Shown here one piece after another: positions 2,372-40,552 of a DNA stretch of 64,000 nt; position 1 is the stretch's first letter, and each line of letters begins with the position of its first letter. The stretch comes from a phage. Below the pieces are notes generated by a model that did not search any database, was not told the DNA's origin, and was given only the letters and a program-made list of their open reading frames with translations. A program made the translations under genes and the position numbers. The stretch lies in the NCBI GenBank assembly GCA_012225525.1, contig GCA_012225525.1_3923.1. One strand, 5' to 3'.

Positions 2372-3412
2372 ATGGAGAAGTACACATTAACAAAGCTTCC
2401 CGATTCAGTTACACATGTCTTTATTGACTCTGACAGCATTGCCTATAAAGGTGCTTGTGTAGTTGAGAAAGCAAAGTATAAATACGTTAATAAACTCACA
2501 GCAGAAGAATCTGAACCATTTGATAATGCGAAAGATGCTGCAAGATGGTTAGCAGACCAGAGAATCCTTGTGGAAGAGCTTGGCCTGACATTTGATGAAG
2601 ATGAATGGGAAAGACAGACTTGGAAAGAAGCTAAGAGTGAAAAAGAAGCTATCATGGCTACTCAACAGGTGCTTCAGGAATGGCTTAAGGTTGTTGGGAA
2701 AGAGAGAACTTGGGTAGGCTATTTAACAGAGAAAGGTGTGCATAAACATAAAGACGTTAAAGGTCTTGAGCACCAATATCAAGGCAACCGTAAAGATGCT
2801 GTCACACCAACACACTTAGTTGCTTGTCGTGAATACCTTCTGTCAAGACCAGAGTTTAAGCTCTTAAAGGGGGGCTTCGAAGCCGATTCAATCGTAATCG
2901 CTAAAGCTGAAAAGATGGGTAAGAAAGCTGCTCTTATGAGTATTGACAAAGACCTTCGACAAGCTGAAGGAACTTATTGTATTGATATGACTTATGAAAA
3001 GTCACCACTAATTTTTATTGCTGACAATAATGTTGGTGATATCTGGGATTGCCCTATCAAATCAAAACCAAAAGCTGCAAAAACAGTTGGCGTAGGTTTT
3101 AAATTCTTGTGTTATCAGGCTGTTGCTGGAGATAATGCAGACAACTACTTCGGCCTAAAAGGTGCTGGTAAAGTAGCTGTGATGAATGCTTTAGAGGGTA
3201 AAGAGACCTACAAAGAGTGTCTTGACGCTATCTATGAACTTTATGCTAAAAAAGATTCTTATACCTATGTGTCATGGGATGGACAGACTGTTACCAAAAC
3301 ACCATTAGAGTTAATGGAACAGCATTTCTGGATAGCATATCAAGAGAGAAATCCAAAAGACAATTTCTCTTTCAAGAAATATAATTGGGAGCCGTGTATG
3401 AATGAAGATTAA
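2372..3412 (+). CDS. 5'-3' exonuclease / flap endonuclease (FEN, RNase H-like)
   Basis: N-terminal HVFIDSDSIAYKG, GGFEADSIVIA and AGDNADNYFGLKGAGKVA motifs typical of PIN/H3TH 5' nucleases. Confidence 0.65.
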   Translation: MEKYTLTKLPDSVTHVFIDSDSIAYKGACVVEKAKYKYVNKLTAEESEPFDNAKDAARWLADQRILVEELGLTFDEDEWERQTWKEAKSEKEAIMATQQVLQEWLKVVGKERTWVGYLTEKGVHKHKDVKGLEHQYQGNRKDAVTPTHLVACREYLLSRPEFKLLKGGFEADSIVIAKAEKMGKKAALMSIDKDLRQAEGTYCIDMTYEKSPLIFIADNNVGDIWDCPIKSKPKAAKTVGVGFKFLCYQAVAGDNADNYFGLKGAGKVAVMNALEGKETYKECLDAIYELYAKKDSYTYVSWDGQTVTKTPLELMEQHFWIAYQERNPKDNFSFKKYNWEPCMNED

Positions 3413-3899
3413 AGGATTTGGCAATTGCCCCACCTACGGTCATTGGGTATCTTTATGTGGGGAAGTTGACCCCACTAAACATTTTGGCTTTGTCTATTTA
3501 GTGCACTGTAAGAAGACTGGACAATATTATATCGGAAAGAAACAGCTTAACAGTGTGACAAAAAGAAAAGTTGCTGGGAAGACTCGGAAGAAGGTAGTCA
3601 CTAAGGAGAGTGATTGGATGACTTACGAGACTTCTTCTGAGTATATTAAAAAAGATATTGAGAGCTTTGGAAAAGAATTTTTTGACTTTTACATCATTCA
3701 GACCTACTACACAAAAGGTGGCCTAGTCTATGGTGAAGCAAACCTTCAACATAAATTCGATGTAATGACAAAAAGGATTGACTCGAAGCTCAGACTCTTC
3801 TACAATGCCAATATTGCAGCAATTAAGTTTATTACTAAAGAAACTTATGAAGATGCTGAAAAAAGAATCCATAAGGTAATGAAAGCAAATTGTGCTTGA
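3402..3899 (+). CDS. GIY-YIG family endonuclease (homing-endonuclease-like)
   Basis: FVYLVHCKKTGQYYIGKK matches GIY-(10 aa)-YIG spacing. Confidence 0.5.
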   Translation: MKIKGFGNCPTYGHWVSLCGEVDPTKHFGFVYLVHCKKTGQYYIGKKQLNSVTKRKVAGKTRKKVVTKESDWMTYETSSEYIKKDIESFGKEFFDFYIIQTYYTKGGLVYGEANLQHKFDVMTKRIDSKLRLFYNANIAAIKFITKETYEDAEKRIHKVMKANCA

Positions 3900-3905
3900 T
3901 AACTA

Positions 3906-4169
3906 TTGAGAGAGAATAAAATGTTTAACAAAAGCAAAGCTGTGAATCATGTAGCAAAAGTTGACAGTAAGATTGAAGAACTTGAGCGCATTCTTGCAAA
4001 TGCTAGAGAATCAATAATTAAAGAAGTTGAAGCTGTTGAATCACAAATGCAGCACCTAATGCTTAAACGCCAAGAGCTACGTGAGCATCTAGAATATATT
4101 GAAACACGAGAGCTAAAAGTTAACAGATATTTTAAGGAGTCCGAATGTTTAACTCAAGAGAATCAGTAA
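3906..4169 (+). CDS. hypothetical coiled-coil protein
   Basis: Track ORF; probable start ATG at 3921 after GAGAGA. Confidence 0.4.
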   Translation: MRENKMFNKSKAVNHVAKVDSKIEELERILANARESIIKEVEAVESQMQHLMLKRQELREHLEYIETRELKVNRYFKESECLTQENQ

Positions 4170-5578: not shown

Positions 5579-7813
5579 ATGATTAAGACAATTAAAAAAT
5601 CAAACGGTACAGTAGTAAGCTTTGACCCAGAAAGACTGAATAAATGGGCATCATGGGCAGATAAGCGTGGAATTATCTGGTCAGAAGTCACTATGGAAGC
5701 TATGAAACGTGTCTATGAAGGTTGCACCACAAAAGAGATGCACCAAGCCATGATTGATGTTTGTGTTGATAAACAAACTCAAGAGTACTCAGATATGGCT
5801 GGACGACTGCTTTTGGGTATTATCTACAAAGAAGCCTTTGGAGGCTTTACTAAGGTTCCTACGCTGGTTACCTTCGTTAAAAATATGGAGAGAGCAGGAC
5901 TTTGGGAGAAGATGGACTATTCTCAGGAAGAGCTTGAATACCTGCAAGGGTACATTGTGCACTCAAAAGATATCTCTTATGGTTATGCAGTCCTGAAACA
6001 GTTCAGAGACAAGTATGGTATCCGTGATATTAAAACGGGAAGACTTTTTGAGTCACCACAATTTATGTTTATGGGTATGGCTATGAAAGCCTTTGAGAAG
6101 CAACCAAAGCACCGTAGACTACAAGATGTTATCAAGCTGTACACTTACCTATCTGACCTGAAGATTAACGCTCCTACTCCTTACCTGAATGGTTTAAGAG
6201 CCACTAAATCAGGTTATGCGTCATGCTGTTTGATTAAGGCGAATGATACCGCTGAATCTCTCGGTATTGCTGCAAAGGTTGCTTATGATATGACTACAAA
6301 GCAAGCTGGTATCGGGATGCTGATGGAGACTCGCACTATTGGTGATGGTATCCGTCAAAATACTATTGAACACATGGGTAAGCTACCTTATTACAAGCTT
6401 GTACGTTCATCTGTAGAGGCAAACAAACAGAAGAGTCGTGGTGGTTCAGCTAACAACTTCTATACTGCTCTAGACCCGCAGATTGAAGATTTACTGCGTT
6501 TGAAGCACCCTACAACGGTTCCTTCGAAACGTATTAACGAGATGGACTACTCATTTGGTACAAATGATTATTTCTGGCAGTGTGTTCAATATGATACAGA
6601 CTGGTTGCTATTCTCTTACAAGGATGCACCAAAACTCTATGACATGTTCTACACAGCATCTGCTGATGAGTTTGCTATGGCAGTTGGTCACGCAGTCCAT
6701 TCAGGTGTTAAGCACAGACGAGTAAAGGCTCGTGAAATTGCTAAACTGTTTATCCAGCAGCGTTATGCAACAGGCCGTGTGTACCCATTCTTCACGAATA
6801 ATGCAAACACACATACGCCATTTAAAGAACCTTTGAAGATGTCAAATCTTTGTATGGAAATTGTGTTGCCAGTGTACGGCTTTGAGAAAGAGACAGACCT
6901 TTACAGAGATGATGCTGTGAAAGAGGATGGTGAGGTAGCTCTTTGCTTCCTAGCTAGTTTGGTTGCAGGGAGAATTTCAGAAGATGAATACGCTGACGTT
7001 GCTTATTATGCTCTTGCAATGGTTGACTCCGTTATTGACCTTATGGATTATCCGTATCCGTCGATGCGTAACCATGTTCAGAAGCGTCGTTCTGTTGGTA
7101 TTGGCCTTACAAATGTGGCTCATTACCTTGCAAAAAACTACGTGAACTACTCTTCAAGAGCAGGTAAGACGAAGCTTCATGAGCTTGCTGAAATGCACTC
7201 TTACTACTTACACGAAGCTTCTTTAAGACTTGCTAAAGAACGTGGTGTACCTGAGTATATGCAGTTCACTAAGTATCCTGAAGGCTGGGTTCCTCCAAAG
7301 ACAGCTAACAAGAAGATTGATGAGAAGCATGATGCAAAACTTCGTTATGATTGGGATGACTTAGCACAACGTATTAAAGAAAATGGTGGAATCCGTAACT
7401 CTGTATTAGAGGCTTACATGCCTAATGAGAGTTCTTCACTGGCAACTAATACGACAAACGGCTTGTACCCAATTCGTGACTTTATTTTAACTAAAAAGTC
7501 TGCAACTGGTAACGTACTGTTTATTGTTCCAGATTACGAAGAGTTGAAGTATGTCTATGAAATTGCTTGGGATATTGACACCTTTGACCTGATTGATTGT
7601 TATGCAATTGTTCAAAAGTTCACTGGTCAAGCTATCTCTTCAGATTTCTATGTTGACTACGCAAAAGCTAAGAAGGTATCATTGGCTCAAGCTTTGAAGT
7701 ACATGATTTATGCTAACTCAGTAGGTATGAAAACTATGTACTACCTTAACAGTCGCATTGGTGTAGGTAAATCTGCACTGCAAGATGCTTATTGCGAGGG
7801 TTGTGGTGTTTAG
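5579..7813 (+). CDS. nrdA: ribonucleoside-diphosphate reductase large subunit (class I RNR alpha)
   Basis: 744 aa; ATP-cone-like N-terminus; followed by NrdB and redoxin genes. Confidence 0.9.
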   Translation: MIKTIKKSNGTVVSFDPERLNKWASWADKRGIIWSEVTMEAMKRVYEGCTTKEMHQAMIDVCVDKQTQEYSDMAGRLLLGIIYKEAFGGFTKVPTLVTFVKNMERAGLWEKMDYSQEELEYLQGYIVHSKDISYGYAVLKQFRDKYGIRDIKTGRLFESPQFMFMGMAMKAFEKQPKHRRLQDVIKLYTYLSDLKINAPTPYLNGLRATKSGYASCCLIKANDTAESLGIAAKVAYDMTTKQAGIGMLMETRTIGDGIRQNTIEHMGKLPYYKLVRSSVEANKQKSRGGSANNFYTALDPQIEDLLRLKHPTTVPSKRINEMDYSFGTNDYFWQCVQYDTDWLLFSYKDAPKLYDMFYTASADEFAMAVGHAVHSGVKHRRVKAREIAKLFIQQRYATGRVYPFFTNNANTHTPFKEPLKMSNLCMEIVLPVYGFEKETDLYRDDAVKEDGEVALCFLASLVAGRISEDEYADVAYYALAMVDSVIDLMDYPYPSMRNHVQKRRSVGIGLTNVAHYLAKNYVNYSSRAGKTKLHELAEMHSYYLHEASLRLAKERGVPEYMQFTKYPEGWVPPKTANKKIDEKHDAKLRYDWDDLAQRIKENGGIRNSVLEAYMPNESSSLATNTTNGLYPIRDFILTKKSATGNVLFIVPDYEELKYVYEIAWDIDTFDLIDCYAIVQKFTGQAISSDFYVDYAKAKKVSLAQALKYMIYANSVGMKTMYYLNSRIGVGKSALQDAYCEGCGV

Positions 7814-11844: not shown

Positions 11845-11879
11845 GTGTGAGTCTTGATAGGCTTACATCACCTTTTTTA
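11845..11879 (+). terminator. probable intrinsic terminator
   Basis: Imperfect hairpin GGTGGTGTGAG...CTTACATCACC followed by TTTTTT; approximate coordinates. Confidence 0.45.
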
Positions 11880-11984
11880 TTGGATGTTAGATATGGCAGA
11901 GAGTATTATTAGGTTGTTCATAGGTTCTGTCTTACTAGGGTTCTTTTTAGGACTCTCTTATTGTGAATTAAGAGGCAAGTTAAA

Positions 11985-12185
11985 ATGTTTAAAATATCAA
12001 AAGCGTTGATATACATTCTCCACATTCTAATCTTCTTCTTTGGGGTTAGTGTTATGGTATGGGGTTTTTCAGACCCACAATGGAGTTTCGCATATCAGGG
12101 TCAGATGGATTTATGGTCATGCTTCAAACCATTTTTAGGGTTAGTCATAGCATTCAGTGCATTGCCAACTAAGGTGAAATTATGA
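11985..12185 (+). CDS. small membrane protein
   Basis: 66 aa, hydrophobic. Confidence 0.25.
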   Translation: MFKISKALIYILHILIFFFGVSVMVWGFSDPQWSFAYQGQMDLWSCFKPFLGLVIAFSALPTKVKL

Positions 12186-21862: not shown

Positions 21863-22411
21863 ATGAAGAAATTGATTCTAGGTTTGTGCTTAATGTTTAC
21901 AGCACACTTATCTTATGCAGTTGACTGCCCAGAGCTATCAATTAGCCAAAAAGTGAACATGTTAAAAGCTTACCAGTATGGTGAGAATAACATGGGTAAA
22001 GGTTGGGGTATCACTCTAGCAGCTATAGCCTTACAAGAGTCAGAGTTAGGTCTGAAGGTAGAAAATAAAAAGACCCATGACTATGGTATCTTCCAGAATC
22101 ACTTGAAGACTGTTGTAAAGCGTAACAAAATTAGTCCTAATGTTGCTAAAAAGAAACTCTTAAAAGATTTTGACTATGCCGCAAAAGAAACACATAAAGA
22201 GCTTGAGTTTTGGACGAAGGTACATGGTCACCCAAAGTCAAAGAAGACTTTACAAAAAGTTTTAGCATCATATAATGCTGGGTATTCGTACAGAATCCCT
22301 AAAGCTAAGAAATACTCTCAAGATGTCTATAACAATATGAAAGTTATCGCTCAATGTGAATTTGCAACAAACATTTCTAAGGTAAATCATGAAAAAATTA
22401 AGAAAGTCTGA
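21863..22411 (+). CDS. secreted lysozyme-like / lytic transglycosylase-like protein
   Basis: Signal-peptide-like N-terminus MKKLILGLCLMFTAHLSYA; QESELG...YGIFQNH resembles SLT catalytic region. Confidence 0.4.
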   Translation: MKKLILGLCLMFTAHLSYAVDCPELSISQKVNMLKAYQYGENNMGKGWGITLAAIALQESELGLKVENKKTHDYGIFQNHLKTVVKRNKISPNVAKKKLLKDFDYAAKETHKELEFWTKVHGHPKSKKTLQKVLASYNAGYSYRIPKAKKYSQDVYNNMKVIAQCEFATNISKVNHEKIKKV

Positions 22412-23084
22412 TGAAGTCCTGTGCCACGCTTATGACTTGCATCCTCATGAGTTAGGTCTTGATTCCTGTGTATGGACTCCAGAACAGTGCAGAGATTTTG
22501 AAGACACTGCAAGAGAGGTTGTATGTTCACTTGAAGAGTTCCACACATCAGAACCCATTGTGAACGTTGTGGACAAAGAGACTGGACAAACTATAGGTGT
22601 AAGGCGTGATAGTTTAGTGATAGTCAATAAAGACCTTGTAGAAAAAGGTAACCTCATCTTAGCAGATATTGATGGTGTTCTTACAAATTTTAATCACGAA
22701 GATTGCTCAACGGAATTGACTGATGGGTCATTCTCACAGTACACTAATCTTCTTGATTCTGTAAGAGCAAAACCAACATATGTTTTCAACATTATTGATG
22801 CAATTGCAAATCATGCAGCAGTTGGACTCTTGACAGCAAGAGGTGAATCTCAGAGAATACCTACTGAGATGTTTTTAAGGCACAATATAGAGCATGATTA
22901 CTTGCTTTTTATGCGTGGTTTTGGAACTAACTCTATAAGTGCAGAAAGTTTGAAAGTGAGGATGATTCAGTCTTGCATTCTTCCTTACTTTAATATAGTA
23001 TGCTTTATAGAAGATACAGAGAAGAATGTTCAGAAGGTAAACAGAATCCTTCCACACATTAAAACCATGTTAGTTAAACATTGA
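22389..23084 (+). CDS. HAD-superfamily hydrolase-like protein
   Basis: ILADIDGVLTNF matches HAD motif I (DxDG[TV]L). Confidence 0.4.
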   Translation: MKKLRKSDEVLCHAYDLHPHELGLDSCVWTPEQCRDFEDTAREVVCSLEEFHTSEPIVNVVDKETGQTIGVRRDSLVIVNKDLVEKGNLILADIDGVLTNFNHEDCSTELTDGSFSQYTNLLDSVRAKPTYVFNIIDAIANHAAVGLLTARGESQRIPTEMFLRHNIEHDYLLFMRGFGTNSISAESLKVRMIQSCILPYFNIVCFIEDTEKNVQKVNRILPHIKTMLVKH

Positions 23085-23095
23085 GAGAAGAACTT

Positions 23096-23560
23096 ATGAA
23101 CAATATCATTACGGTAGCACTGGACGATACGGCAAACAAATCTGAAGTAGTTCGTAAAATGATTCAAGGTAACTTTGAAGGTAAAATTTTCCGTGCTGTT
23201 AATGTAAAAGCTGATGGCAGCATTCGTGAATATCGTGCATTGTTGAACGTTAAGAAGCACGTAAAAGGTGTTGGTTCAACGACTGCACACAAAGAAAACC
23301 TGATGACTATCTATGATATGGGTAAGGCTTCAGAGTTAGGTGCTGAAGGTATCGTTAAAGAAGGTGCTCCGTATCGCTCTTTCAATCTGGAAACTACCCT
23401 TATGCTTTCCTTTACAAGTGGTTCCAAAACAATCACTTATCTCTTTACTGATGCTGCAACGGTATCTGCTATTAAGGATAGCACTGTCAAAGCTGGCGTA
23501 GTTGCTGCTGCAAAAGCTTCTTCGATGGCTGCGAATATCCTTGCTAAAGTCCTCGGTTAA
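23096..23560 (+). CDS. hypothetical protein
   Basis: ATG 23096 inside track ORF 23081..23560. Confidence 0.4.
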   Translation: MNNIITVALDDTANKSEVVRKMIQGNFEGKIFRAVNVKADGSIREYRALLNVKKHVKGVGSTTAHKENLMTIYDMGKASELGAEGIVKEGAPYRSFNLETTLMLSFTSGSKTITYLFTDAATVSAIKDSTVKAGVVAAAKASSMAANILAKVLG

Positions 23561-23571
23561 GGTTAAGATAC

Positions 23572-23593
23572 AGGCTCCTTCGGGAGCCTTTTT
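23572..23593 (+). terminator. intrinsic terminator hairpin
   Basis: AGGCTCC-TTCG-GGAGCCT followed by TTTT. Confidence 0.6.
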
Positions 23594-23612
23594 CATTTCA
23601 GGAGATTGTTAA

Positions 23613-23960
23613 ATGACATTTAAAGAGTTCTGTCAAGCTACTTTCATAATTGTTTTCTTAGTTGGGACAGGTGTCTGGGGAGGATACTCTTACAGAGACT
23701 ACCAAGTTGCTGAAACTGAGCTAAACAACCAGAAGCTAATAAGTGTTGCTAAAGATGCTTATCAGGAAGGATTAGCTACACTGAGCACCAATTACAAAAA
23801 TGATTTGAAAGACGTGCTTGCTAAGAATAAGCACACAAAAGAGGTACTGACATATGAAAAGACTAAGCCAGAGTTTTATAATGTTTGTGTTACTGATAAC
23901 TATGTCAGGGTGTTCAACGAACAAAGTGAACAGTACATTCAAAAACTCCCAAGTAAGTGA
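23613..23960 (+). CDS. i-spanin-like protein (N-terminal TM segment plus coiled-coil periplasmic part)
   Basis: FIIVFLVGTGVWGGY TM helix then charged helical region; a lipoprotein ORF is embedded in the +1 frame. Confidence 0.35.
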   Translation: MTFKEFCQATFIIVFLVGTGVWGGYSYRDYQVAETELNNQKLISVAKDAYQEGLATLSTNYKNDLKDVLAKNKHTKEVLTYEKTKPEFYNVCVTDNYVRVFNEQSEQYIQKLPSK

Positions 23961-24123
23961 GAGTGATAAGTACACTCAAGAAGAATCACGGTATATCATC
24001 AAAGGCAACACAGGCAGTGATGTAGCAGCAGCACTTGAGTTCTACCGTGACGGCTTTTACCAGTGTACAATTAAAGCTAATAACCTTATTGACATGATTT
24101 TATTAGGGAATAAGCAGCAATGA
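23854..24123 (+). CDS. lipoprotein, possible o-spanin, overlapping 23613..23960 in another frame
   Basis: Signal peptide with lipobox-like ITMSGC; starts inside the upstream gene. Confidence 0.3.
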   Translation: MKRLSQSFIMFVLLITMSGCSTNKVNSTFKNSQVSESDKYTQEESRYIIKGNTGSDVAAALEFYRDGFYQCTIKANNLIDMILLGNKQQ

Positions 24124-24389
24124 CAGAGAATCAAGACACTTTCTATGTAGAAGGTTACTTACTGTTACCACGACCAAAAGAAACTTATATGCGAATCGAT
24201 TTCTTACCAACCATTATGGATAATGTGATGTGTCATATCTTTATGCAAGGTGTCACAGCACAGCTTAAGCATGTTGGTAAAGATTGCAAAATAAAGGTTG
24301 ACACTCATCCAGAAATCAAAGAGAATCACTACACATGGTTCTTACCAGATTCTAAAGAAATCTTAGCAGTTCTTAAAACGAGGAAGTAA
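24120..24389 (+). CDS. hypothetical protein
   Basis: Track ORF. Confidence 0.35.
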   Translation: MTENQDTFYVEGYLLLPRPKETYMRIDFLPTIMDNVMCHIFMQGVTAQLKHVGKDCKIKVDTHPEIKENHYTWFLPDSKEILAVLKTRK

Positions 24390-24391
24390 CT

Positions 24392-24718
24392 ATGCAGATT
24401 AATGGAAGAGACTTTGTAGCCGTTTACTACGAGAAAGATAAAGAAGTTGGCGTAGCACAAGTGTCTTATAGCAATGGTAAGTGGCTATATGGAACAATCG
24501 CAGTAGTTGGAACAAGAAGTGATACAAAAACTTTTAAAGATTGTGTTGACCTTCTTGAAGAATCCATTCAGAATCATTGGTGTCTGATATGGATGACTGA
24601 CAATGAAGTGATAGAACGCTTCAAAAAGATTGATATCAACATTGATAGTATTGAGCATGTTGATTTATATGAGCTAACTGAGAAGGTAAACTATGAGAGT
24701 AATTCTAGCCAGAGATAA
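24392..24718 (+). CDS. hypothetical protein
   Basis: Track ORF. Confidence 0.35.
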   Translation: MQINGRDFVAVYYEKDKEVGVAQVSYSNGKWLYGTIAVVGTRSDTKTFKDCVDLLEESIQNHWCLIWMTDNEVIERFKKIDINIDSIEHVDLYELTEKVNYESNSSQR

Positions 24719-24920
24719 AAAGACACGGAAACTCATCCGGTCAGCAGTATTCATTGGAAGAAATGAAGTCATCCCGTTTACAGCAAACGATGTGATAGCC
24801 TACAGGAAAAACTTAGTATTTAGTGATTGCTTGCGTGGCTTCATCTCCCAACCGTTGGAAGACTTTAAAAGCCGTTGTGGTAAAGGTATCATCATTCAAG
24901 AGGCAATTATCAATGGCTGA
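24693..24920 (+). CDS. hypothetical protein
   Basis: Track ORF overlapping neighbours. Confidence 0.25.
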   Translation: MRVILARDKKTRKLIRSAVFIGRNEVIPFTANDVIAYRKNLVFSDCLRGFISQPLEDFKSRCGKGIIIQEAIING

Positions 24921-25113
24921 CTTCTGCAAAGACTGTTCTATAGAAATGTTTGGACGTGATACAGGTGACTTAAAAGGTCTTATCACTGAGGATGACTTTA
25001 AAGCTGGCTACGCAATGCCAGTAATCTGTGAAGGCTGTGGGTGCATCTGGGTAGACCACGAAGGACAGCGTGTAAAACCTTCAGAAGATAAAGAGTCTTG
25101 GGAGAGATGTTAA
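24913..25113 (+). CDS. small zinc-ribbon-like protein
   Basis: ATG 24913 (MADFCKDC...CEGCGC) within track ORF 24823..25113. Confidence 0.3.
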   Translation: MADFCKDCSIEMFGRDTGDLKGLITEDDFKAGYAMPVICEGCGCIWVDHEGQRVKPSEDKESWERC

Positions 25114-25899
25114 ATGGGTATTGTAAAAATAATCAATGGTGATATCTTTGCCGCATTTGATAAAGGTAAGTTTGACATCATCGGTCACGGTTGCAACTGT
25201 ATGAATTTAATGGGTGCAGGTATCGCTGACAAGATTTCTAAACTTTACCCAAAAGCATATGAGACCGATACAGAAGTTTATCTATATGCAGGTGGTATAG
25301 GACACAAACCCTGTGAAAATTTACTGGGTAATTTCTCTGTAGCACGTTTAAAACAAGGTCGTATAGCTAACCTTTACACTCAGCTTAAGACTGGTAAAGA
25401 TGCCCGATACAGTGCTTTAGAGTCATCTTTGAAACAGCTTAACAGATACTGTGAAGTTAATCAGTTGAAGAAAGTTGGTTTACCTATGATTGGTGCAGGT
25501 ATTGGTGGGCTGGACCCTCAAGCTGTCATAGTTATCATCAATCAGGTGATGAAGAGTGTAGATGTTTATCTGTATGTCTATGAAGGAGAGATGTACCACA
25601 AGTTACGCTCAGGTTGGAAGAACTACTGTGAACCAGAATACTTTGCAGGTGTAGCAGTGTTCACAGATAACGCAGTTACCCTCTTCAGACGAAGAAAAGG
25701 TAAGATACATCAAAGTAACCCTCCGGTTGAAAAGATGTCTCTGAGTAACGCTCTAGTTACCCACCTGTCGAAGAGCAATCACAGGATTGCAGTAACATTT
25801 GGCAGTGATGCAGATACTTATATCTATGCAAGAACTGATGAGGATATCGAGACAGTTTTCTCTTCACCAGAAGTTACCTTCTTAGACGCAAAGAACTAA
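25114..25899 (+). CDS. macro-domain-like protein (ADP-ribose binding/processing)
   Basis: INGDIF...FDIIGHGCNCMNLMGAGIADKI and GLPMIGAGIGGLDP resemble macro domain N-terminal and Gly-rich motifs. Confidence 0.5.
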   Translation: MGIVKIINGDIFAAFDKGKFDIIGHGCNCMNLMGAGIADKISKLYPKAYETDTEVYLYAGGIGHKPCENLLGNFSVARLKQGRIANLYTQLKTGKDARYSALESSLKQLNRYCEVNQLKKVGLPMIGAGIGGLDPQAVIVIINQVMKSVDVYLYVYEGEMYHKLRSGWKNYCEPEYFAGVAVFTDNAVTLFRRRKGKIHQSNPPVEKMSLSNALVTHLSKSNHRIAVTFGSDADTYIYARTDEDIETVFSSPEVTFLDAKN

Positions 25900-27256: not shown

Positions 27257-27553
27257 ATGAAATTACCAAATAAAGTTCGTGAAAATCTAAGCAAATTACT
27301 CAACAAAATTGATTTCATTGAAACATCAAGAAATAGCCATGATGTTATGGAATGGTTACACGGCAAAATAAAAGGTCGTCGTGTAGTGATTTGCTTATGG
27401 AATAGTTGCAGGGAGTATAAAAAACCTGTATTGCAAGTTAATATCTATGATGATACTCTTAAAAGTCCTGTCAAATCTAAAAGCGATTTACTAGATTCTT
27501 ATGAGATAACTGTAAATGGCAAAGTGTCACGTAAAGAGGAAGCACCATGTTAA
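27257..27553 (+). CDS. small hypothetical protein (array gene 3)
   Basis: Follows cassette B. Confidence 0.5.
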   Translation: MKLPNKVRENLSKLLNKIDFIETSRNSHDVMEWLHGKIKGRRVVICLWNSCREYKKPVLQVNIYDDTLKSPVKSKSDLLDSYEITVNGKVSRKEEAPC

Positions 27554-27879
27554 TGACTGGTATCACTGCAATCATTGCCATTTTCGCGCTCTATAAGGCA
27601 TATAAAGCCTATAATCTAGCAAATAAGGCAATTACACAACAGGTTAGCAATAACCTTGTAATGAGCTTTCTAGAGCGGTTGAGCGATGAACAATTAAAGC
27701 GGTTAGAAATGAGCTTCAGATTCAGGGCGAGAACTTATCAAATCAGCGACATTTTCAAAGATGATTTTCAATTAGTCGATGATTATAATTCTCTGATAAA
27801 TGCTTTAAATATTAGTGACTTAAAAGACTATCATACTGTAATTGTTCAAGAGTTGAGCAAACGAAAACAAAACTGTTGA
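27547..27879 (+). CDS. small membrane-associated hypothetical protein (array gene 4)
   Basis: N-terminal hydrophobic segment; overlaps previous stop. Confidence 0.4.
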   Translation: MLMTGITAIIAIFALYKAYKAYNLANKAITQQVSNNLVMSFLERLSDEQLKRLEMSFRFRARTYQISDIFKDDFQLVDDYNSLINALNISDLKDYHTVIVQELSKRKQNC

Positions 27880-38954: not shown

Positions 38955-39419
38955 TTACTTTGGGTATACACTGTCAAGATAAATGTCAGCTTCCATTCTA
39001 CGTCTGTTTTTCAGACCGTTTGAAGTGACCTTCTTACCTTTGACTGTAACCTTGTTCCACCACTGCATAGCTTCTGCACAACCTACCTTATTACCGGCAT
39101 TGTGGCGCTTGATAAATGTGGAATCCTGCATAGCTGTGATACCGATGTTGTATGTTTCACTTACAAGTGCATCGAACTCATTCTGAGTAGTTGGAACCTT
39201 GATAGCTTTGTTCACTGCTGCAACAAACTTCTCAACATCCGCGAGAAGATACTGTTCAGCTTGTTCAGCAGTAATTTTCATACCCATCTTAACAGGTTTT
39301 CCGTCAATACGGATTGTCCCATACCCGATTGTTGGGATTCCGGCAGAATCTTCGTAAGCCTCTAACTCCAGACCTTCGAAGAACTTAATAGCATCTAAAC
39401 CTTTTCTTGAGAGTTGCAT
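38955..39419 (-). CDS. endolysin, phage lysozyme (GH24 muramidase-like)
   Basis: LELEAYEDSAGIPTIGYGT motif typical of T4/lambda-type lysozymes; 154 aa. Confidence 0.7.
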   Translation of the reverse strand: MQLSRKGLDAIKFFEGLELEAYEDSAGIPTIGYGTIRIDGKPVKMGMKITAEQAEQYLLADVEKFVAAVNKAIKVPTTQNEFDALVSETYNIGITAMQDSTFIKRHNAGNKVGCAEAMQWWNKVTVKGKKVTSNGLKNRRRMEADIYLDSVYPK

Positions 39420-40552
39420 TACGCCTCCCCTGCTGGGTTAACTGTAACTGTTGCTGCATTGGATGTTACAGAGCCACCTGCACCAGTAACTACACAGGTG
39501 TAGCTTCCTGCATCAGCAGCGGTCGCACCTTCTTTGGTGTAAGTTGCAGTAGTTGCATCAAGGATGTCTTCCTCACCTTTCTTCCACTGGTAACCTGTCG
39601 CACCTGTTGCCACAACATTCAGCGTTAAGGTCTCACCTTCATTGATTTCTTGATTGGTTGGCTGTTGAGTGATTACCGGAAGTGCGTTAACAGTAACCGT
39701 TGCAGGGCTAGAAGTGACAGAACCACCTGCACCTGTTACAACGCAAGTGTATGAACCTGCATCTGCTGGCAGAGCACCAGACTTACTATAGGTTGCATCT
39801 GTAGCCGAAGGAATGTCAGAGCCATCTTTCTTCCACTGATAACCTGTTGCACCTGTTGCAGTCACTTCCAAGTTGATGTTTCCACCCTCATTGACGGTCT
39901 GACCAGAAGGTTGCTGTGTAATAACAGGCAGTGCGTTGACAGTAACTGTTGCCGCATCTGAGGTAACACTTGTCCCAGCCTCTCCAGACACAACACAAGT
40001 ATAAGAACCAGCATCAGAAGGTGCTACAGATTGTTTTGTGTAGGTTGCAGATGTGGCGCTAGTGATATCCTCACCATCCTTTTTCCATTGATATCCAGTG
40101 GCATTGGTTGCAATAACGCTTAGGGTAAGTGTATCACCTTCATTTACTGTTTGATTGGTTGGTTGCTGAGTGATTGATGGTGGCTTGATAGCATCCTTCA
40201 ACTTAGCATTCAACATTGAGAATGGTTTAACTCTTGCCAGCCATTCACAATAAACTGTATCAACGTCTTTACCATTGATAATTGCATATTGTAAGTCCAT
40301 GAAGAAGTCAGAAGTTCTCATTTGAGCACCAACGCTGTAAAGCAACTCATCACTAAATGGGACTTTGTAGTCTGGTTTGTAGTCAAACTTCTCAACTTCT
40401 GCAATATCAGCTTCAGGCCAATACGAGCTATAGGTGAGTGGTAAAATAGCCTCTTGATATGTTCTAAAATCATATCTCTTACCAGCCTTTACATTTGCAA
40501 TGAAGCCCTTCACAAACTCTTTGAAGTCTGGGTAAGTCTTTGCTTTAATCAT
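39419..40552 (-). CDS. protein with N-terminal unknown domain and three C-terminal Ig-like repeats
   Basis: Three tandem ~90-aa repeats each with QQPTNQTVNEG...ATGYQWKKDG...DAGSYTCVV (I-set-like pattern). Confidence 0.6.
   Translation of the reverse strand: MIKAKTYPDFKEFVKGFIANVKAGKRYDFRTYQEAILPLTYSSYWPEADIAEVEKFDYKPDYKVPFSDELLYSVGAQMRTSDFFMDLQYAIINGKDVDTVYCEWLARVKPFSMLNAKLKDAIKPPSITQQPTNQTVNEGDTLTLSVIATNATGYQWKKDGEDITSATSATYTKQSVAPSDAGSYTCVVSGEAGTSVTSDAATVTVNALPVITQQPSGQTVNEGGNINLEVTATGATGYQWKKDGSDIPSATDATYSKSGALPADAGSYTCVVTGAGGSVTSSPATVTVNALPVITQQPTNQEINEGETLTLNVVATGATGYQWKKGEEDILDATTATYTKEGATAADAGSYTCVVTGAGGSVTSNAATVTVNPAGEA
39422..40180 (-). repeat. three tandem ~280-bp coding repeats (Ig-like domains)
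   Basis: Repeated nucleotide blocks; antisense ORF 39407..39628 is a by-product. Confidence 0.65.

Follow-up and report, generated by a model that had tools for sequence, protein, structure and literature searches.

The spanin genes of phage lambda, Rz and Rz1, belong to a contiguous S-R-Rz/Rz1 cassette. Among two-component spanins a long lipoprotein, a lack of prolines and dispersed lysis genes are known variation. The T4 o-spanin family, for instance, is without proline-rich stretches, has a C-terminal helix and is encoded by genes that are not adjacent to those of the holin and endolysin (Kongari et al. 2018, PMC6139136).

The spanins of Felix O1-like phages have been classified in the same study, where the overlapped two-component spanins include those of Felix01, FO1a, UAB_phi87 and FSL_SP-010/012. 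An i-spanin family named "JH2" holds the proteins of Felix01, FO1a, UAB_phi87, Moogle, Mushroom, WV8, EC6, FSL_SP-010/012 and others, together with those of phiEco32, NJ01 and ECBP2; the same Felix O1-like phages fall into one o-spanin family (Kongari et al. 2018, PMC6139136). Two genome papers, on phages Moogle (PMC4319497) and Meda (PMC6486253), each describe an inner-membrane and an outer-membrane spanin among scattered lysis genes, and in Meda no holin was identified. A search of the literature found no experiment on the Felix O1/JH2 spanin family.

A spanin gene pair in a Felixounavirus genome

The DNA analysed here, referred to as the window, is a stretch of 64,000 nt which proves to be a segment of a Felixounavirus genome, known isolates being 97% identical to it. 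Over positions 23000-25000 the identity is 96-97% with the Felixounavirus phages LF110P2, vB_EcoM_LMP34 and UAB_Phi87, and with about 200 other Felix O1-like phages. Within this region are two ORFs, the second read in frame +1 with respect to the first, both present exactly as a first-pass annotation of the sequence had placed them (Table 1). That annotation had proposed an i-spanin/o-spanin organisation of the Rz/Rz1 kind, a proposal now backed by the sorting signals, a match to the family phrog_1152, the pattern of selection, the lysis cassettes of relatives and the classification of Kongari et al. (2018). It had also called the arrangement embedded, and here it needs correction: the ORFs share only 107 nt, and because the o-spanin gene continues for 163 nt beyond the i-spanin stop codon, the architecture is termed "overlapped" rather than "embedded" as in lambda.

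The pair is, with high confidence, the two-component spanin of a Felixounavirus with an overlapped gene architecture. Class membership was judged by the criteria for two-component spanins of Summer 2007 and Kongari 2018. The genes are adjacent, overlapped and in the order i-spanin, o-spanin; the sorting signals, the periplasmic cysteines and the linkage to other lysis genes are considered in turn below. The spanin assignment rests on signals, architecture and context. Weighing against it are the missing matches to named spanin models and families, the moderate confidence of the structural models, the terminator-like hairpin upstream with no promoter found behind it, and a holin that could not be recognised, all of which are set out below. 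Both proteins are 95-99% identical to their Felix O1-like counterparts, and an i-spanin and an o-spanin are annotated at this locus in many GenBank records. It is thus an already catalogued Felix O1-like spanin, real but ordinary.

Table 1. Positions in the window of the spanin genes, their features and other genes discussed in the text
Feature	Position	Strand	Basis or remark
Terminator-like element	23572-23594	+	GC-rich hairpin and T run, 19 nt before i-spanin start
i-spanin gene	23613-23960	+	115 aa; N-terminal membrane helix and 88-aa, mostly helical periplasmic domain (predicted)
i-spanin membrane anchor (predicted), codons 6-24	23628-23684	+	Kyte-Doolittle scan; sole hydrophobic segment
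Dual-coding overlap, 107 nt	23854-23960	+	Frame 0, i-spanin C-terminal motif; +1 frame, o-spanin signal peptide
i-spanin Cys92, invariant (predicted periplasmic)	23886-23888	+	Homologue alignment
o-spanin gene	23854-24123	+	89-aa precursor, 70 aa mature; predicted outer-membrane lipoprotein, disordered linker and C-terminal helix
o-spanin lipoprotein signal peptide and lipobox	23854-23913	+	Pattern match; MKRLSQSFIMFVLLITMSG, cleavage, then C, with Ser at +2
o-spanin Cys71, invariant (predicted periplasmic)	24064-24066	+	Homologue alignment; within predicted helix 54-87
182-aa protein	21863-22411	+	Cleavable-looking signal peptide (MKKLILGLCLMFTAHLSYA); two genes upstream of spanins, just after rIIB
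Polynucleotide kinase gene	22389-23084	+	One gene from spanin pair
Macro-domain protein	25114-25899	+	PF01661, E 1.4e-7; five small genes downstream of o-spanin
GH24 endolysin, presumed partner enzyme	38955-39419	-	Pfam PF00959, E 4.5e-41; phrog_7 endolysin; 14.8 kb away
377-aa protein	39419-40552	-	Three immunoglobulin-like repeats (Ig_3, E 1.7e-34); Hoc-like or tail-protein PHROGs
Small membrane protein, 68 aa	9431-9637	+	Two helices
Small membrane protein, 177 aa	35579-36112	-	Two C-terminal helices; 2.8 kb from endolysin
Further small membrane proteins	11854-12185 and 27547-27879	+	

The i-spanin

The i-spanin gene is preceded by a Shine-Dalgarno-like sequence, AGGAGA, at positions 23600-23605. 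Its product is small and has one predicted N-terminal membrane helix, the segment FCQATFIIVFLVGTGVWGG at residues 6-24, with a Kyte-Doolittle 19-mer mean of 1.62; in close relatives the 17-mer mean is 2.0. A hydrophobic N-terminal segment is retained in every homologue aligned, and in phage Paul a TMpred transmembrane domain is annotated at residues 8-23 of the homologue. The remainder of the protein, predicted to form a periplasmic C-terminal domain, is hydrophilic, with 11 lysines and 8 glutamates in 88 residues. AlphaFold2 models it as mostly helical (helices 39-57, 65-79, 85-92 and 95-111) with moderate confidence (pLDDT 64). The first reading of this protein, as one N-terminal transmembrane helix followed by a helical, charged C-terminal part, agrees with the hydropathy scan, the lysine and glutamate content and the structural model.

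Residues 1-115 of the protein align with positions 2-124 of the 127-position profile of phrog_1152, "Rz-like spanin" (E 1.6e-41), and this full-length, significant match places it in the Felix O1/JH2 i-spanin family. The records of relatives likewise label the counterpart an i-spanin or an Rz-like spanin. In an alignment of eight divergent pairs the invariant residues are Gly24, Leu37, Leu65, Glu82, Phe88, Asn90, Cys92, Tyr97 and Phe101-Asn-Glu. A conserved C-terminal motif, EKTKPxFxNxCxxDxYxxxFNE, is encoded inside the overlap with the o-spanin gene.

The o-spanin

The second ORF was predicted to begin with a lipoprotein signal, and this is upheld by its N-terminus, MKRLSQSFIMFVLLITMSGC followed by ST, which fits a lipobox pattern of the PROSITE PS51257 type. 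The signal peptidase II signal, the lipobox cysteine and the lack of Asp at position +2 are those of an o-spanin; the serine found at +2 is compatible with outer-membrane sorting, Asp being the Lol-avoidance residue. In the homologue of phage Paul the depositor's LipoP analysis called an SpII site between residues 19 and 20. The lipobox departs from the strictest form, L-[AS]-[GA]-C, at position -3, where it carries Met instead of the commonest residue; this counts against the spanin reading. A profile search of solved structures gave marginal matches only: the o-spanin signal peptide showed a resemblance to that of BamE, an outer-membrane lipoprotein (E 0.04), and for the i-spanin no match was informative.

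The mature lipoprotein contains no proline. AlphaFold2 predicts a low-confidence linker from residue 20 to residue 53 and a helix from 54 to 87 (pLDDT 60). Among eight divergent homologues Cys20-Ser-Thr (C20, S21, T22), Gly54, Cys71, Asn76 and Leu78 are invariant, and these residues and the signal peptide are kept despite an overall identity of 25-35%. A Shine-Dalgarno-like GAGG at positions 23841-23844 lies ahead of the start codon. The first-pass annotation was right that the lipoprotein has 89 residues and is not proline-rich; it had taken these properties and the dispersal of the lysis genes as odd, and in this it did not hold, as they fall within the known variation represented by the T4 o-spanin family.

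Dual coding and selection

For the analysis of selection the 511-nt locus was compared in 26 distinct sequences from Felix-like phages, which show no length variation. Both frames are open in all 26; dN/dS is 0.16 for the stretch coding for the i-spanin alone and 0.10 for that coding for the o-spanin alone. Across these sequences nucleotide diversity is 0.052 in the overlap, below half the values of its flanks (0.117 and 0.150), and the apparent synonymous rate, pS, is 0.06-0.08 as against 0.35-0.55 in the flanks. This collapse of both diversity and synonymous rate is the pattern expected if each of the two frames encodes a translated protein under constraint. Purifying selection acts on the i-spanin and on the o-spanin, with a double constraint in the overlap, beyond what chance would produce.

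The second ORF might nevertheless be spurious, an open stretch out of frame whose likeness to a lipoprotein signal is fortuitous, as several GenBank records omit it or start it truncated. Gene finders are, however, known to miss o-spanins (Kongari et al. 2018, PMC6139136), and 163 of the 270 nt of the ORF are the sole coding sequence between the i-spanin stop codon and the next gene. The low dN/dS of this part, the suppression of synonymous change in the i-spanin frame across the overlap, the Shine-Dalgarno-like sequence, and the conservation of the signal peptide and of the invariant residues at low overall identity all speak for a translated gene. A spurious origin of the ORF is exceedingly improbable, and it is treated here as the o-spanin gene.

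In public data the o-spanin is often misannotated. An internal methionine chosen as the start removes the signal peptide in phage heid (L001, positions 2403-2621), and in protein clusters of 73 and 68 aa from the range P0024-P0037; the gene is uncalled in the records of Pistou, Arno18 and Bas94; and in Hafnia phage SarahDanielle the i-spanin is mislabelled "o-spanin". The correct call in the window is the 89-aa ORF listed in Table 1, and many records of the genus miss this gene or start it late.

Relatives and lysis cassettes

A word-indexed protein search found close relatives only (15 and 24 clusters), and the AlphaFold2 models reach only moderate confidence (pLDDT 60-64) because the alignments behind them are correspondingly shallow. 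By tblastn the pair is found at 25-48% identity in other phage groups. These include other Ounavirinae, namely Suspvirus, Mooglevirus, Hafnia phage SarahDanielle, Kolesnikvirus of Erwinia and Pectobacterium phage Arno18, as well as the phiEco32-like podophages (Kuravirus) and the P2-like Yersinia phage vB_YenM_324. The link between the i-spanin family and the phiEco32-like phages was thereby found independently of the published classification.

A pattern scan of IMG/VR gave 80 loci, of which the 44 with both an o-spanin lipobox start and an i-spanin match were scored. The overlapped +1 arrangement is present in every one of these 44. In seven of seven prophage-like loci inspected, several of them from the unscored remainder, an i-spanin with the same C-terminal motif lies directly upstream; those of the seven that were unscored had been missed by the tblastn threshold.

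In Arno18 the i-spanin start lies 7 nt beyond the end of a GH24 lysozyme gene (PF00959, E 5.7e-28). Phage vB_YenM_324 has the gene order holin, M15 peptidase endolysin, i-spanin, o-spanin, as do all seven of the related prophage contigs that were inspected; at one of the prophage loci (L079) the holin matches PF04550 (E 2.4e-40), the endolysin PF13539 (E 4.9e-11) and the i-spanin phrog_1152 (E 5.4e-40). More broadly, relatives of the pair in P2-like and Mu-like prophages lie in holin-endolysin-spanin cassettes. The gene order in Arno18, vB_YenM_324 and the prophages therefore indicates that this family fills the spanin slot of classical lysis cassettes where such cassettes exist. The linkage to holin and endolysin genes that serves as a class criterion is thus found in relatives, and in the window the endolysin gene stands well apart from the pair.

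This context bears on a second reading, in which the lipoprotein has another job, such as superinfection exclusion or receptor blocking in the manner of T5 Llp or Cor, the 115-aa protein is unrelated or regulatory, and the overlap reflects tight packing. Such a reading could appeal to the position of the locus among early/middle-type genes (rII, polynucleotide kinase, macro domain) and far from the endolysin, but the T4 spanins likewise lie among early-region genes, beside pseT. It could also appeal to the o-spanin itself, which lacks prolines, is longer than lambda Rz1 and has as its best profile matches phrog_4180 (E 1.4e-50) and phrog_2425 (E 7.9e-10), both unlabelled or of "unknown function", the match to a spanin family (phrog_456, "Rz-like spanin") being weak (E 2.5e-4). 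A distant member of the same family, a prophage o-spanin 32% identical to that of the window, nevertheless passes the Pfam LysC model PF23793 with 31.4 bits against a cutoff of 27, and a PADLOC scan for a defence or exclusion role returned no matches. Moreover, the same i-spanin family and overlapped +1 arrangement recur in every lineage examined, and the pair occupies the spanin slot in Arno18 and the P2-like prophages. A role for the lipoprotein outside lysis is improbable, and the two-component spanin remains the preferred reading.

Among the database matches to the spanin region are the record of Staphylococcus phage SA1 (GenBank GU169904.1, 147 kb) and two "Campylobacter" records. In the SA1 record a membrane protein gene of the Felix O1-like kind is also present, as a copy with 93% identity. 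These records are probably mixed or mislabelled.

Endolysin and holin

The GH24 endolysin gene is distant from the spanin genes and on the opposite strand, as had been noted from the first, and the dispersed lysis genes which this implied are in keeping with the scattered lysis genes of the Moogle and Meda papers (PMC4319497 and PMC6486253). The gene of the 377-aa protein lies immediately upstream of the endolysin gene, and its stop codon shares one base with the start codon of the latter.

A holin was sought among eight small membrane proteins of the window and none was recognised; seven of the eight belong to PHROGs of "unknown function" or labelled as generic membrane protein. The sole candidates are the small membrane proteins listed in Table 1, all of which belong to such PHROGs. 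When the 68-aa protein with two helices was searched by tblastn, no record named its counterpart a holin.

Upstream hairpin and neighbouring genes

The hairpin ahead of the i-spanin gene, at 23572-23589 without its T run, is annotated as a "terminator" in the records of KhF1, KhF2, KhF3 and XTG1 and in phage Paul, and no sigma-70-like promoter was found between it and the i-spanin start. A hairpin and T run about 10-25 nt before the i-spanin start is seen in Felixounavirus, Suspvirus, a Hafnia phage, Kolesnikvirus and Kuravirus (the window and loci L009, L004, L006, L003 and L005). Its position is kept while the stems differ (GGCTCC/GGAGCC, GGTCACC/GGTGGCC, GGACTC/GAGTCC and GCCACC/GGTGGC), and no such hairpin is seen where an endolysin gene immediately precedes the pair, as in Arno18 and vB_YenM_324. 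These observations suggest that expression of the spanins depends on read-through of the terminator or on RNA processing.

The 182-aa protein encoded upstream of the pair has a sub-threshold match to the SLT domain of lytic transglycosylases (19.2 bits against a cutoff of 21.3). Its counterparts are annotated as "putative lysin" in phage heid and as "lytic transglycosylase domain protein" in a Hafnia phage. It may be a second, secreted muralytic enzyme; if so, the spanins are not wholly isolated from wall-degrading genes.

Counterparts of the macro-domain protein, annotated "phosphatase" in relatives, are encoded immediately downstream of the o-spanin gene in Kuravirus phage Paul (L003, positions 3466-3906) and Kolesnikvirus phage Pistou (L006, positions 2784-3566). 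This suggests a module of hairpin, spanin pair and macro-domain gene that is shared across unrelated phage groups.

The gene order in the window is polynucleotide kinase, a 159-aa ORF, i-spanin and o-spanin, and in T4 (L091, positions 6003-7782) it is reversed: pseT.3, pseT.2, pseT.1, pseT. The proximity of kinase and spanin genes in both phages may be coincidence or an old linkage.

Proposed mechanism

By analogy with the paradigms of lambda Rz/Rz1 and T4 PseT.3/PseT.2, the pair most likely acts to break the host outer membrane at the last step of lysis. The 115-aa product would be anchored in the inner membrane by the helix at its N-terminus, leaving the helical 88-aa domain on the periplasmic side. 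The 89-aa product is predicted to be processed by signal peptidase II and lipidated at Cys20, and would then be taken by the Lol pathway to the inner leaflet of the outer membrane, a destination assigned to it because the +2 residue is Ser rather than Asp. The C-terminal regions of the two proteins, in the i-spanin the motif that contains Cys92 and in the o-spanin the helix that contains Cys71, would bind each other. The complex so formed would cross the periplasm by way of the meshwork of peptidoglycan, probably with disulfide bonds to stabilise it. Once the GH24 endolysin had removed the peptidoglycan, the freed complexes would fuse the inner and outer membranes and so finish lysis.

At least one periplasmic cysteine for an intermolecular disulfide has been found in 507 of 528 two-component systems (Kongari et al. 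2018, PMC6139136), and here C92 of the i-spanin and C71 of the o-spanin, both invariant, are available. The functional disulfides of lambda and T4 are homotypic; for a heterotypic one, each of the two components must possess a cysteine (Kongari et al. 2018, PMC6139136). A heterotypic C92-C71 disulfide, which would lock the complex as a covalent bridge from inner to outer membrane, is conceivable for this pair but unlikely; homotypic disulfide dimers are the more likely arrangement.

Comparison with known spanin systems

Scans of both window proteins against Pfam and NCBIfam matched no spanin model and returned only noise. Like lambda Rz/Rz1, the pair combines the signal of an N-terminal membrane helix with that of an outer-membrane lipoprotein, has its o-spanin in the +1 frame and carries periplasmic cysteines. 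Lambda Rz1 differs from the window o-spanin in being fully embedded in Rz, in its mature length of 40 aa and in its penta-proline stretch (Kongari et al. 2018, PMC6139136). Membership of the lambda family was rejected: neither of the Pfam models, Rz or Rz1, is matched (hits at E<0.1 were noise only), there are 0 prolines in 70 residues, and the genes are overlapped.

P2 LysB/LysC, the prototype of overlapped spanins, resembles the pair in this architecture, with the o-spanin in another frame, and in size (141 and 96 aa, as compared with 115 and 89 aa here). In contrast to the window o-spanin with its lack of proline, P2 LysC is proline-rich in its N-terminal half, and the P2 pair, unlike that of the window, sits inside a lysis cassette. 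Assignment to the P2 family was likewise rejected, as the window o-spanin matches neither LysC PF23793 nor NCBIfam NF038368 and hhalign against P2 LysB/LysC gives a probability of 2-3% (2% for LysC). To judge from the prophage o-spanin described above, the pair would be tied to P2 LysC at most distantly, through intermediates.

T4 PseT.3/PseT.2 is similar in size (117 and 83 aa), in an o-spanin that has a C-terminal helix and no proline-rich region, and in genes that lie apart from those of the holin and endolysin. The T4 genes are separated, whereas the window pair is overlapped, and the T4 i-spanin has no periplasmic cysteine and the T4 o-spanin two (Kongari et al. 2018, PMC6139136), as against one invariant cysteine in each component here. 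BLASTP against the T4 proteins gave E values of 0.94 and 9.1, that is, no similarity, and this family was also rejected. The pair appears to work like the spanins of lambda, P2 and T4 but is by sequence a member of none of these families.

The value of the pair lies mainly in correct annotation. It completes the lysis gene set of this Felix O1-like phage, with spanins that a reader of the sequence only could recognise from their signals. It might also serve as a convenient third spanin model beside lambda and T4, being without prolines, with one cysteine per subunit and with a conserved motif inside the overlap. The current understanding of spanins is unchallenged by it. From the Felix O1/JH2 spanins, whose i-spanin is phrog_1152, the window pair shows no difference of substance: genes and architecture are the same, and it represents one more isolate.
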